DNA of 64,000 nt from Escherichia coli (GCF_044324875.1 NZ_CP172185.1), one strand, 5' to 3'. Counted from the stretch's first letter, positions 50,435-56,942 are shown. Notes: generated by a model from the letters alone, not told the origin. Numbers and translations are program-made.

Positions 50435-50448
50435 TTGATATGGATTAA
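50435..50448 (+). promoter_or_regulatory. Candidate FNR-type site upstream of ynfE
   Basis: TTGAT-ATGG-ATTAA about 100 bp upstream of ynfE resembles the FNR consensus TTGAT-N4-ATCAA in 8 of 10 positions. Confidence 0.3.
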
Positions 50449-50547
50449 TAATTCTTAACCCAAAATGGGTAGACTCCCTCTATTGTTAGCGCGCTAAATA
50501 TTCAATATATAAACTTTTATATAACGATAAAGATCAGGGAGTGAGTT

Positions 50548-52974
50548 ATGTCCAAAAATGAACAAATGGTGGGCATCAGCCGCAGAACACTCGTTAAATC
50601 TACCGCGATAGGTTCTCTGGCGCTGGCTGCAGGCGGTTTTTCTTTACCGTTCACCCTGCGCAGTGCAGCGGCAGCGGTACAGCAGGCCAGCGAGAAAGTG
50701 GTCTGGGGTGCCTGTTCCGTCAACTGTGGTAGCCGCTGTGCACTTCGTCTGCATGTTAAAGATAATGAAGTGACCTGGGTGGAAACTGACAACACCGGCA
50801 ACGACGAGTATGGCAATCATCAAGTACGTGCCTGTTTGCGCGGTCGCTCCATCCGTCGGCGTATTAATCATCCCGATCGCTTGAATTACCCAATGAAACG
50901 CGTGGGCAAACGCGGCGAAGGCAAATTCGAACGGATTAGCTGGGATGAAGCCCTGGATACTATCGCCAGTAGCCTGAAAAAAACCGTCGAACAATATGGC
51001 AATGAGGCTGTATATATTCAGTACTCTTCAGGGATCGTTGGCGGCAATATGACCCGCTCTTCGCCATCCGCCTCGGCGGTCAAACGCCTGATGAACTGCT
51101 ACGGCGGTTCACTCAACCAGTATGGCTCCTACAGCACCGCGCAAATTTCCTGTGCCATGCCCTACACCTACGGCAGTAATGATGGCAACAGCACCACGGA
51201 TATTGAAAACAGCAAGCTGGTCGTGATGTTTGGTAACAACCCGGCAGAAACCCGCATGAGCGGCGGTGGCATCACTTATCTTCTTGAAAAAGCGCGCGAG
51301 AAATCGAACGCAAAAATGATTGTTATCGATCCGCGATATACCGATACAGCTGCTGGTCGTGAAGACGAATGGCTACCTATTCGCCCGGGCACCGATGCCG
51401 CGCTGGTTGCGGGTATTGCCTGGGTATTGATTAACGAAAATCTCGTTGATCAACCTTTTCTCGATAAATACTGCGTCGGCTATGACGAAAAAACCTTACC
51501 CGCAGATGCACCAAAAAATGGTCACTATAAAGCCTATATTCTTGGTGAAGGAGACGACAAAACAGCGAAAACGCCGCAGTGGGCTTCGCAAATTACCGGT
51601 ATCCCGGTGGACCGTATCATCAAACTGGCGCGTGAAATTGGCACAGCAAAACCCGCTTATATCTGCCAGGGCTGGGGACCGCAACGCCAGGCAAACGGCG
51701 AGCTGACTGCACGCGCTATTGCGATGTTGCCTATTCTGACGGGCAATGTCGGCATCAGCGGCGGAAATAGTGGCGCGCGTGAATCGACCTATACCATTAC
51801 CATAGAACGCCTACCGGTGCTGGATAATCCGGTCAAAACGTCAATCTCCTGCTTCAGCTGGACAGATGCTATCGATCATGGCCCGCAAATGACGGCAATC
51901 CGCGACGGTGTCCGGGGCAAAGATAAACTGGATGTGCCCATTAAGTTCATCTGGAACTACGCGGGAAATACCCTCGTTAATCAGCATTCTGACATCAACA
52001 AAACGCATGAAATTCTGCAGGACGAATCGAAATGCGAAATGATTGTGGTCATCGAAAACTTTATGACCTCATCGGCAAAATATGCCGACATTCTGCTGCC
52101 AGACCTGATGACCGTTGAGCAGGAAGATATTATTCCTAACGACTACGCCGGTAACATGGGATATCTCATTTTCCTCCAGCCTGTCACCAGCGAAAAATTC
52201 GAACGCAAACCGATTTACTGGATCCTGAGTGAAGTCGCGAAACATCTTGGACCTGAAGTCTATCAAAAGTTCACTGAAGGTCGCACTCAGGAACAATGGT
52301 TACAACATCTGTACGCCAAAATGCTTGCCAAAGATCCGGCGTTACCGTCTTACGACGAATTAAAAAAAATGGGTATCTATAAGCGTAAAGATCCCAATGG
52401 TCATTTTGTCGCCTACAAAGCATTTCGTGACGACCCCGAGGCAAATCCACTTAAAACGCCTTCCAGTAAGATTGAAATTTACTCCAGCAAGCTGGCGGAA
52501 ATTGCCCGTACCTGGGAACTGGAAAAAGATGAAGTGATAAGCCCACTGCCGGTTTATGCCTCAACCTTTGAAGGCTGGGACACCCCTGAACGTAGTACCT
52601 TTCCACTGCAACTGTTTGGTTTCCATTACAAATCCCGTACTCACTCGACCTACGGCAACATTGATGTCCTGAAGGCAGCCTGCCGTCAGGAAGTGTGGAT
52701 CAACCCTATAGATGCACAGAAACGTGGGATTGCCAACGGCGATATGGTGCGGGTGTTTAACCATCGTGGCGAAGTTCGGCTACCAGCCAAAGTGACACCA
52801 CGCATTCTCCCTGGGGTTAGCGCTATGGGCCAGGGAGCCTGGCACGAGGCCAATATGTCTGGCGATAAAATCGACCATGGCGGCTGTGTGAATACGCTAA
52901 CCACTCTGCGCCCTTCACCACTGGCGAAGGGAAACCCGCAGCACACTAATCTGGTCGAGATCGAAAAAATATAA
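50548..52974 (+). CDS. ynfE: Molybdopterin oxidoreductase catalytic subunit (DmsA paralog, selenate-reductase associated), Tat-exported
   Basis: 808 aa; twin-arginine signal SRRTLVKSTAIGSLALAAGG; N-terminal Cys cluster CSVNCGSRC; molybdopterin-binding domains. Confidence 0.95.
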   Translation: MSKNEQMVGISRRTLVKSTAIGSLALAAGGFSLPFTLRSAAAAVQQASEKVVWGACSVNCGSRCALRLHVKDNEVTWVETDNTGNDEYGNHQVRACLRGRSIRRRINHPDRLNYPMKRVGKRGEGKFERISWDEALDTIASSLKKTVEQYGNEAVYIQYSSGIVGGNMTRSSPSASAVKRLMNCYGGSLNQYGSYSTAQISCAMPYTYGSNDGNSTTDIENSKLVVMFGNNPAETRMSGGGITYLLEKAREKSNAKMIVIDPRYTDTAAGREDEWLPIRPGTDAALVAGIAWVLINENLVDQPFLDKYCVGYDEKTLPADAPKNGHYKAYILGEGDDKTAKTPQWASQITGIPVDRIIKLAREIGTAKPAYICQGWGPQRQANGELTARAIAMLPILTGNVGISGGNSGARESTYTITIERLPVLDNPVKTSISCFSWTDAIDHGPQMTAIRDGVRGKDKLDVPIKFIWNYAGNTLVNQHSDINKTHEILQDESKCEMIVVIENFMTSSAKYADILLPDLMTVEQEDIIPNDYAGNMGYLIFLQPVTSEKFERKPIYWILSEVAKHLGPEVYQKFTEGRTQEQWLQHLYAKMLAKDPALPSYDELKKMGIYKRKDPNGHFVAYKAFRDDPEANPLKTPSSKIEIYSSKLAEIARTWELEKDEVISPLPVYASTFEGWDTPERSTFPLQLFGFHYKSRTHSTYGNIDVLKAACRQEVWINPIDAQKRGIANGDMVRVFNHRGEVRLPAKVTPRILPGVSAMGQGAWHEANMSGDKIDHGGCVNTLTTLRPSPLAKGNPQHTNLVEIEKI

Positions 52975-53031
52975 CCCACTACAACCATAAATTCTGACAT
53001 GACATTTTGTTTGAAAAGCAATAAGTGAGTA

Positions 53032-55458: not shown

Positions 55459-55468
55459 GGAGTAGCCC

Positions 55469-56086
55469 ATGACCACACAATATGGATTTTTTATCGATTC
55501 CAGCCGCTGTACTGGCTGTAAAACCTGCGAACTGGCGTGCAAAGATTTTAAAGATCTTGGCCCGGAAGTCAGTTTCCGCCGTATTTATGAATATGCTGGC
55601 GGCGACTGGCAGGAAGATAATGGCGTCTGGCACCAGAACGTGTTCGCTTATTATCTCTCCATCTCCTGTAACCATTGCGATGACCCCGCATGTACAAAAG
55701 TCTGCCCCAGCGGCGCAATGCATAAGCGTGAAGATGGCTTTGTGGTGGTTGATGAAGATGTTTGTATCGGCTGCCGCTACTGCCACATGGCTTGTCCATA
55801 CGGCGCGCCACAGTACAATGCTGAAAAAGGACACATGACGAAGTGCGATGGTTGTTATTCGCGCGTCGCCGAGGGGAAACAACCCATATGTGTCGAATCC
55901 TGCCCGCTGCGTGCACTTGAGTTCGGTCCAATTGAAGAGCTTCGCCAGAAGCACGGCACTCTGGCTGCCGTTGCGCCACTGCCGCGCGCGCATTTCACAA
56001 AACCCAATATCGTTATCAAACCTAACGCCAACAGCCGCCCGACCGGCGATACCACTGGTTATCTGGCTAATCCGGAGGAAGTGTAA
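55469..56086 (+). CDS. ynfG: 4Fe-4S ferredoxin-type electron-transfer subunit (DmsB paralog)
   Basis: 205 aa with four Cys-x2-Cys-x2-Cys-x3-Cys-Pro clusters. Confidence 0.95.
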   Translation: MTTQYGFFIDSSRCTGCKTCELACKDFKDLGPEVSFRRIYEYAGGDWQEDNGVWHQNVFAYYLSISCNHCDDPACTKVCPSGAMHKREDGFVVVDEDVCIGCRYCHMACPYGAPQYNAEKGHMTKCDGCYSRVAEGKQPICVESCPLRALEFGPIEELRQKHGTLAAVAPLPRAHFTKPNIVIKPNANSRPTGDTTGYLANPEEV

Positions 56087-56087
56087 A

Positions 56088-56942
56088 ATGGGAAATGGAT
56101 GGCATGAATGGCCACTGGTTATCTTTACCGTATTGGGTCAATGCGTAGTAGGCGCGCTGATTGTTAGCGGAATTGGCTGGTTCGCCGCCAATAATGACGC
56201 AGACCGTCAGCGTATTGTCCGTGGCATGTTTTTCCTCTGGCTGTTGATGGGCATCGGGTTTATTGCCTCTGTCATGCACCTGGGATCGCCACTGCGAGCG
56301 TTTAACTCGCTGAATCGAATCGGTGCTTCTGGTCTGAGTAACGAAATTGCTGCCGGTTCAATATTTTTTGCCGTTGGCGGATTATGGTGGCTGGTGGCAG
56401 TCATCGGTAAAATGCCGCAAGCGTTGGGGAAACTCTGGTTACTTGTCAGCATGGCGCTCGGCGTCATTTTCGTCTGGATGATGACCTGCGTGTATCAAAT
56501 CGACACAGTGCCAACCTGGTATAACGGTTACACTACGCTAGCTTTCTTCCTGACAGTATTGTTGAGCGGTCCAATACTTGCTGCCACAATTCTGCGGGCA
56601 GCCCGCGTTACATTTAATACCACACCATTTGCCATCATTAGCGTTCTGGCGCTGATCGCTTGTGCCGGGGTGATTGTGCTGCAAGGTTTGTCTCTGGCGT
56701 CTATTCACTCATCCGTACAACAAGCCAGCGCACTGGTACCAGATTACGCCTCCTTACAGGTCTGGCGTGTGGTATTGTTATGCGCAGGTCTAGGATGCTG
56801 GCTTTGTCCGCTCATTCGTCGCCGTGAACCTCACGTTGCCGGACTTGTTCTGGGGCTAATCCTCATACTTGGCGGTGAGATGATCGGGCGTGTGCTCTTT
56901 TATGGCCTGCACATGACGGTAGGAATGGCTATTGCAGGTTAA
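56088..56942 (+). CDS. ynfH: Membrane anchor subunit (DmsC paralog)
   Basis: ATG at 56088 (MGNGWHEWPLVIFTVLGQCVVGALIV) gives 284 aa; the ORF-track entry 55848..56942 over-extends into ynfG in another frame. Confidence 0.9.
   Translation: MGNGWHEWPLVIFTVLGQCVVGALIVSGIGWFAANNDADRQRIVRGMFFLWLLMGIGFIASVMHLGSPLRAFNSLNRIGASGLSNEIAAGSIFFAVGGLWWLVAVIGKMPQALGKLWLLVSMALGVIFVWMMTCVYQIDTVPTWYNGYTTLAFFLTVLLSGPILAATILRAARVTFNTTPFAIISVLALIACAGVIVLQGLSLASIHSSVQQASALVPDYASLQVWRVVLLCAGLGCWLCPLIRRREPHVAGLVLGLILILGGEMIGRVLFYGLHMTVGMAIAG

Follow-up and report, generated by a model that had tools for sequence, protein, structure and literature searches.

The ynfEFGH-dmsD operon in a 64-kb stretch of Escherichia coli DNA: two paralogous catalytic heads, an FNR-activated promoter and a candidate ModE box in the leader

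The ynf operon and its closest described relatives

The closest described counterpart of the locus examined here is the ynfEFGH-dmsD operon of Escherichia coli K-12 (b1587–b1591), a selenate/tellurate reductase operon, and the 64 000-nt stretch of E. coli DNA that we analysed (GCF_044324875.1, NZ_CP172185.1; referred to below as the window, with positions counted from its first letter) carries the same genes in the same order, with the same spacing and the same promoter (Table 1). Genetic studies of ynfEF have linked the pair to reduction of both selenate and tellurate, with YnfE as the main contributor (PMC5203670, PMC12724226, PMC12096835). The dmsABC operon of E. coli, which encodes dimethyl sulfoxide (DMSO) reductase, is like ynf in its three-subunit design, its domain content, its use of the DmsD chaperone, an A-to-B gene junction of the same sequence type and the succession of an FNR class II site and a ModE-type leader box, but unlike ynf it has one catalytic gene, a separate locus without dmsD and another published substrate. 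At the protein level DmsA is 67% identical to the ynf catalytic subunits, DmsC is 58.5% identical to YnfH, and DmsB is 94% identical to YnfG (81% at the DNA level). The srnABCD operon of Enterobacter cloacae is an orthologous single-head version without ynfF (layout ynfE-ynfG-ynfH-dmsD, or E-G-H-D for short), whose SrnA shares 86% identity with YnfE of E. coli and is functional in combination with the E. coli YnfGH/DmsD proteins (PMC12724226). A further relative is the ynfE-dmsA-dmsB-dmsC-dmsD operon of Yersiniaceae (Serratia, Rahnella and Ewingella), which like ynf has two tandem catalytic genes and one B-C-D set, and in which an FNR-like site and a 7-2-7 repeat are spaced 22 nt apart as in E. 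coli; it differs from the E. coli operon in that the second gene is a DmsA orthologue (81–82% identical to K-12 DmsA) and not YnfF, and in its flanking genes.

Between 50.4 and 57.6 kb of the window lie five intact co-directional genes, and we consider it highly probable (about 0.93) that they are the known E. coli ynfEFGH-dmsD operon, encoding a DmsABC-type molybdoenzyme that is membrane-bound, faces the periplasm and can be fitted with either of two catalytic heads; there is no evidence contradicting the operon identity. The proteins are 98.4 (YnfE), 99.6 (YnfF), 100 (YnfG), 97.9 (YnfH) and 98.5% (DmsD) identical to those of K-12, and the differences are allelic only (13 aa in YnfE and three in YnfF, with DNA divergence of 2.6 and 1.6% respectively). 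In a megablast search a 7.5-kb query over the five genes matched 5424 of 5426 complete E. coli genomes, 5060 of them at 80% or more of the query length, with ynfE, ynfF, ynfG, ynfH and dmsD annotated beneath the matches; the best complete-genome matches to the operon of the window are 99.6–99.8% identical. An initial annotation, made from the sequence of the window, had named the same five genes, and all of them score above the NCBIfam and Pfam thresholds. It had also described two adjacent 808-aa genes (RefSeq gives ynfF 807 aa) that share a single set of iron–sulphur (FeS), anchor and chaperone genes, and had called the pattern a known one, all of which holds. The span that it gave to the unit, 50435–56942, ends at the ynfH stop codon and thereby omits dmsD, which had been counted as part of the unit. 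Since the operon and its FNR site were already known, the identification is correct but ordinary.

The family assignments separate the two catalytic subunits cleanly. YnfE scores 1791.6 against NF041885 (cut-off 1675) and falls below the cut-off of the YnfF model, and YnfF scores 1773.4 against NF041884 (cut-off 1650) and falls below that of the YnfE model (both NCBIfam), while both exceed the cut-off of TIGR02166 and both contain PF04879, PF00384 and PF01568 (the Pfam Fe4S4, molybdopterin and molybdopterin guanine dinucleotide (MGD)-binding domains). A twin-arginine motif for export by twin-arginine translocation (Tat) is found at residue 11 of YnfE (SRRTLVK) and residue 15 of YnfF (SRRSLMK). 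The FS0 motif, C-x3-C-x3-C...C, is formed by Cys 56/60/64/96 in YnfE and 59/63/67/99 in YnfF, its first three cysteines being invariant across 58 sequences, and the serine aligned to DmsA residue 205 (YS[ST]AQI) is kept in all 58. This serine probably corresponds to the published molybdenum ligand of DmsA, Ser-176 in an older numbering. A search of the PDB gave no solved structure of a DmsA/YnfE-type subunit, the best matches being TorA/DorA at about 1e-74. Of the remaining subunits, YnfG scores 264.8 against TIGR02951 (cut-off 214.1), contains ferredoxin-type Pfam domains and has 16 cysteines, which form four ferredoxin groups and are placed as in DmsB; YnfH matches PF04976 (DmsC) with E = 1.4e-127; and DmsD scores 345.9 against NF008632 (cut-off 162) and carries PF02613 (NarJ/DmsD family). 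In the scheme that we prefer, the catalytic head, YnfE or YnfF, bears a Tat signal, a single [4Fe-4S] cluster and Mo-bisMGD liganded by a serine. DmsD (whose binding is known from the literature) attaches to the signal peptide of the head, and the Tat system exports the head, probably jointly with YnfG and its four [4Fe-4S] clusters, after which it docks on the YnfH anchor, the subunit that accepts electrons from menaquinol.

The promoter and leader of ynfE

The initial annotation had pointed to a TTGAT-N4-ATTAA motif upstream of ynfE and had suggested anaerobic control by FNR. A pattern scan finds the motif (TTGATATGGATTAA, matching nine of 10 consensus positions) with its centre 106.5 nt upstream from the start codon of ynfE, within the 198-bp ynfD–ynfE spacer, and this is the sole match to TTGATN4ATYAA in the window. 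It should be noted that such a lone match is insignificant by itself, as 0.39 matches are expected per window by chance and 26 of 100 shuffles held at least one; its weight comes from position, conservation and published chromatin immunoprecipitation sequencing (ChIP-seq). In K-12 the operon was placed in category 1, that of direct activation by FNR, a single site being given at −40.5 (Myers et al., 2013, PMC3688515), and one supplementary table of that study places exactly the same 14-mer beneath the ynfE FNR ChIP-seq peak while another marks the operon as ‘Activated’. The result carries over to the window, where the promoter matches that of K-12: the 150 nt upstream of ynfE differ by one base, which lies near the ribosome-binding site and outside the FNR, NarL-type and ModE-like sites. 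Both FNR activation and NarL repression have been reproduced with reporter strains, which were on without oxygen and off with nitrate or oxygen (PMC6561318), in agreement with the anaerobic expression that had been proposed; passages in later papers credit the two effects to Xu, Busby and Browning (2009).

Alignment of upstream regions from 14 genera, with a mean column identity of 61%, showed that the FNR half-sites TTGA and TTAA are invariant. A −10 hexamer was placed from the published −40.5 position of FNR, and its first T, its A and its final T (TAnnnT) are kept across the 14 genera. Because the FNR site is at −40.5 and a conserved hexamer stands at the matching distance, we infer that transcription starts near 50482, about 66 nt upstream of ynfE. 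Just past this point, in the early leader, a TTAGC box is invariant or nearly so in the 14 genera. A sigma-70 scan detected no promoter and no −35 consensus at ynfE, which we attribute to an activator-dependent class II promoter that lacks a −35 element and do not regard as evidence against the promoter. We give virtually no credence to the idea that the TTGAT-N4-ATTAA motif arose by chance, with anaerobic control coming from elsewhere: the frequency of the motif in shuffled sequence would allow it, but published occupancy of this very 14-mer and published expression refute it. Half-sites that stay invariant in an otherwise much more variable alignment, and the fixed spacing of the site to the −10 element and to the 7-2-7 repeat described below, also speak against it. 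FNR bound at −40.5 activates this class II promoter when oxygen is absent.

The 7-2-7 inverted repeat that overlaps the −10 element is of the NarL type. It matches TACYYMT-NN-AKRRGTA at 12 of 14 positions (7/7 in the right heptamer and 5/7 in the left), and its centre is 22 nt downstream of the FNR centre, at about −18.5. In the related loci that have a TTGA-type FNR-like site (n = 54), a 7-2-7 match of at least 12/14 stood at +22 or +23 from the centre of that site in 43, and elsewhere such matches were found at three of 13 125 positions. The loci with this fixed spacing include those of Serratia, Rahnella, Ewingella and Budvicia. Nitrate shuts the promoter off via NarL, as published, and most simply NarL would do so by occupying the −10 region, with the conserved 7-2-7 repeat as the putative point of action.

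A third element is a 24-bp palindrome resembling a ModE operator (CAATATAT-AAACTTTT-ATATAACG), which lies at about +22 to +45, between the deduced start and the ribosome-binding site. A ModE-type pattern of 14 scored positions (CGNTATAT-N8-ATATANCG) was applied upstream of modA, moaA and dmsA of K-12 and to the window. The box in the ynfE leader scored 13/14 and was the only sequence in the window to reach a score of at least 12, and a single top 24-mer with a score of 13/14 was likewise found upstream of modA (CGTTATAT-TGTCGCCT-ACATAACG), of moaA (CGCTATAT-ACATGATT-ACATAGCG) and of dmsA (CGATGTAT-ACAAGCCT-ATATAGCG). ModE control of dmsA is published, and at dmsA the centres of the FNR site and the ModE box are at −177.5 and −85.5 from the ATG, so that the FNR-then-box order is the same as at ynfE. 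The half-sites of the ynfE box are kept at −45/−44 from the ATG, with the spacer free to vary, in Escherichia, Salmonella, several Citrobacter and Intestinirhabdus. In the upstream comparison the box was absent from the ynfE leaders of Enterobacter, Klebsiella and others, its occurrence being confined to the Escherichia–Salmonella–Citrobacter group. We found no published link between ModE and ynfE in a literature search that did not extend to Studholme and Pau (2003) or Kurata et al. (2013). The palindrome probably adds dependence on molybdate, as at dmsA, to judge from its sequence; the stronger proposal, that it is a working and so far undescribed ModE operator, is tentative and we think it rather doubtful. 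If it were true, the operon would integrate oxygen (FNR), nitrate (NarL) and molybdate (ModE), and a layout of FNR site, transcription start and ModE box would be common to ynfE and its paralogue dmsA.

Upstream of these sites, directly 3′ of the ynfD stop codon, there is a GC-rich hairpin (GCCGGAT...ATCCGGC) with two substitutions relative to K-12. It is probably the ynfD terminator, and it is absent from the list returned by a terminator scan of the window.

Table 1. Features of the ynfEFGH-dmsD operon and other elements recorded in the window.
Feature	Position	Strand	Description
GC-rich hairpin	50364–50390		Probable ynfD terminator
FNR binding site	50435–50448		TTGATATGGATTAA; centre 50441.5
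NarL-type 7-2-7 inverted repeat (candidate)	50456–50471		TAACCCA-AA-ATGGGTA; overlaps −10 element
Putative −10 hexamer	50470–50475	+	TAGACT
TTAGC box	50486–50490	+	Early leader
ModE-operator-like palindrome	50503–50526		CAATATAT-AAACTTTT-ATATAACG
ynfE	50548–52974	+	Tat-exported Mo-bisMGD catalytic subunit, 808 aa
ynfF	53035–55458	+	Paralogous catalytic subunit, 807 aa (RefSeq start at second ATG); 808 aa from in-frame ATG at 53032
ynfG	55469–56086	+	Four-cluster FeS electron-transfer subunit, 205 aa
ynfH	56088–56942	+	Membrane anchor/quinol-oxidizing subunit of the DmsC family, 284 aa
dmsD	56985–57599	+	Tat proofreading chaperone, 204 aa
clcB	57794–59050		Intact 418-codon frame
STnc560	35378–35591	−	Hfq-binding small RNA family

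Divergence of the catalytic genes and arrangement of the locus in relatives

The initial annotation had described ynfE and ynfF as highly similar and had warned that the repeat could mislead assembly or variant calling. Pairwise alignment bears out homology over the full length, but the similarity was overstated: in global alignment the pair is 70% identical as protein and 70–72% as DNA, with the identity evenly spread (0.58–0.79 across 150-nt windows) and a longest common exact word of 17 nt. In conserved codons 57% of the four-fold degenerate sites differ between ynfE and ynfF, which is near saturation and is to be set beside 60% for ynfE/dmsA, 67% for ynfF/dmsA, 60% for ynfG/dmsB and 62% for ynfH/dmsC. 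From the level of identity, the short longest word and the saturated synonymous sites it follows that ynfE and ynfF are old paralogues, which for practical purposes do not form a repeat. They do lie side by side, with equal lengths and homology from end to end, as expected of a recent near-identical tandem repeat that disturbs assemblers, read mappers or homologous recombination, but that explanation is extremely improbable given the figures above, which refute it: nowhere do ynfE and ynfF show the roughly 90% or greater DNA identity, or the long exact words, of a recent segmental duplication. The Salmonella pair is likewise only 71% identical (PMC5203670), and in the complete E. coli genomes the ynfEF segment has a median of one place per genome (megablast). 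Values of this kind are far below those at which mappers or assemblers are confused, and the warning can be dropped for this window.

The only paralogous pair that is closer in DNA, and the closest DNA paralogy in the region, is ynfG/dmsB, with a longest common word of 38 nt. Recent gene conversion between ynfG and dmsB in E. coli was considered and rejected, as their four-fold difference is like that of the other pairs; the 94% protein identity is explained by purifying selection. In seven assemblies of other genera (five Enterobacter, one Kluyvera and one Leclercia metagenome-assembled genome) contigs stop 0–290 nt inside the FeS-subunit gene directly after ynfE (the ends of loci L007, L014, L022, L029, L032, L040 and L063 in our collection), and a Citrobacter amalonaticus scaffold (L020:11957–12836) has a gap with duplicated flanks within ynfG. 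This suggests that ynfG/dmsB, and not ynfE/ynfF, is the assembly-breaking repeat in those genera, although in E. coli ynfG and dmsB are only 81% identical.

A scan for YnfE, with one genome per species, gave 80 loci with orthologues 79–96% identical, and their architectures were assigned by tblastn of the subunits. The E. coli order E-F-G-H-D was found in Salmonella arizonae and diarizonae, Citrobacter amalonaticus and Pseudocitrobacter. The commonest form is E-G-H-D (including Escherichia whittamii, Kluyvera, Klebsiella, many Enterobacter and the Citrobacter freundii group), and more than 20 species have E-D only, with ynfE intact. Raoultella planticola has E-H-D, Serratia, Rahnella and Ewingella have E-DmsA-B-C-D, and Budvicia has E-B-C-A-B-C-D. 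In the Enterobacteriaceae every form is flanked by speG-ynfC-ynfD and clcB-ynfK-mlc, so genes have come and gone within the locus. Where only E-D is present, YnfE can by implication draw on FeS and anchor subunits whose genes lie elsewhere, in line with the published ability of SrnA from Enterobacter to function with its E. coli partners (PMC12724226). In most proteobacteria dmsD follows dmsC (PMC4464133), and the ynf locus thus keeps an ancestral tail. One record in the scan, ‘Chryseobacterium sp. 18061’ (L054, CACSKA010000003.1), has an Enterobacteriaceae-type ynfE-dmsD locus with a YnfE 84% identical and nearly the same layout as that of ‘Citrobacter sp. 18056’ (L062), and is probably a mislabelled or contaminated assembly.

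Origin and retention of the two catalytic heads

A neighbour-joining tree was built from 46 ingroup sequences and rooted by 11 anonymous representatives that a search of 1.8 billion proteins had supplied, none of them more than 56% identical to YnfE. Its rooted topology is ((YnfE,YnfF),DmsA). YnfE and YnfF are each monophyletic with 100% bootstrap support, the DmsA clade, which includes the second gene of the Yersiniaceae operons, has 96%, the grouping of YnfE with YnfF has 97.5% and that of YnfF with DmsA 0%. YnfF branches outside every sampled YnfE orthologue, yet it is present at just five of the 80 loci, and it is only slightly closer to YnfE of the Enterobacteriaceae (mean distance 0.27–0.29) than to that of the Yersiniaceae (0.30–0.31). 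YnfE and YnfF are thus ancient sister paralogues. Their origin by duplication of the catalytic gene is partly supported, and the data fit best with an early duplication in situ, after which the copies would have diverged rapidly at first and ynfF would have been lost many times. The single gene of E. whittamii was also considered as a ynfE/ynfF recombinant. This was rejected over the gene body, which is 82–93% identical to ynfE throughout and 52–79% identical to ynfF; the final two codons, like the junction to ynfG, do belong to the ynfF–ynfG type, but this is uninformative because the same junction is also the ancestral A-to-B junction.

The proposal in the initial annotation of a tandem duplication of the catalytic subunit only is supported by the sister relationship of YnfE and YnfF to the exclusion of DmsA, whereas the E-DmsA-B-C-D and E-B-C-A-B-C-D architectures leave room for duplication of a whole operon followed by loss. 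In that alternative an entire A-B-C operon was duplicated in tandem and the inner B-C pair lost, or else ynfF descends, in the same position but with divergence, from the DmsA-type gene that comes second in the Yersiniaceae operons. The signal peptide of YnfF, with an n-region like that of DmsA and unlike that of YnfE, and the usual position of dmsD after dmsC, which makes the ynf tail look like that of an ancestral dmsABCD, add to what the two architectures offer it. We nevertheless consider it quite unlikely, as YnfF groups with YnfE and never with DmsA. Moreover, in the Budvicia tandem (L084:9426–10899 and 13544–15017) the B copies are 100%, the C copies 99.3% and the A copies 71% identical in DNA, which indicates recent duplication or gene conversion of the B-C module and not a relic intermediate, and the speG-ynfC-ynfD and clcB-ynfK-mlc flanks shared by all the Enterobacteriaceae forms are missing from the Yersiniaceae loci.

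A different question is whether ynfF is redundant and in the process of being lost, so that the operon is effectively ynfE-G-H-dmsD. Salmonella YnfF ‘does not contribute greatly’ to selenate reduction (PMC5203670), ynfF is absent from 75 of the 80 loci, including that of E. whittamii, and within E. coli the gene is broken in some strains. In one class of matches, at 83% coverage, ynfF is annotated as a frameshifted pseudogene; in strain Ecol_732 (L088:4136–5705) it has lost 580 bp (corresponding to 53749–54328 of the window) and 274 bp (55103–55376), the junction of the 580-bp deletion is found in 546 of 5426 complete E. coli genomes, and another 104 have no match to the ynfEF segment. Against redundancy, joint deletion of ynfEF abolishes selenate reduction in E. 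coli (PMC12724226), and where ynfF is retained, as in the window, where the copy is intact, its catalytic motifs are all in place and it is under strong constraint, tighter than that on YnfE: relative to K-12 the YnfF of the window is 99.6% identical at 6% four-fold divergence, compared with 98.4% at 7.7% for YnfE, and between E. coli and Salmonella YnfF is 91–92% identical and YnfE 87%. Redundancy is therefore possible but on balance unlikely; YnfF is dispensable in some lineages and is not generally decaying.

For the reading that we prefer, a known operon with two ancient catalytic heads under control by oxygen, nitrate and perhaps molybdate, several points tell on the other side. The support for YnfE with YnfF comes mostly from two stretches of the alignment, and centrally YnfE is marginally closer to DmsA than to YnfF; the tree itself is a neighbour-joining one, for which distances were corrected in a simple way and the outgroups were anonymous. 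Both the transcription start and the position of the NarL site were deduced here and not taken from the primary promoter study, and the case for ModE control of ynfE is based on sequence only.

Other elements of the window were recorded in passing. The clcB gene, an intact frame in the window, is annotated as a pseudogene with an internal stop codon in the closest complete genome, that of strain 118UI (99.6% over the operon), and the annotation of this closest genome shows a Qin-type defective prophage upstream of rspAB (integrase, excisionase, dicB, ydfD, hokD and cspB/cspF). STnc560 is the sole Rfam family with a match in the window, at full length and with 281 bits against a gathering score of 55.

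The locus is thus a textbook-level one that had been correctly identified. The comparison adds a little to this: the promoter logic, in which FNR is combined with a NarL-type site that overlaps the promoter, predates the family Enterobacteriaceae, and a tenth of sequenced E. coli can do without ynfF. The ynf locus acts as a cassette, in which catalytic heads come and go on a conserved FeS/anchor/chaperone module.

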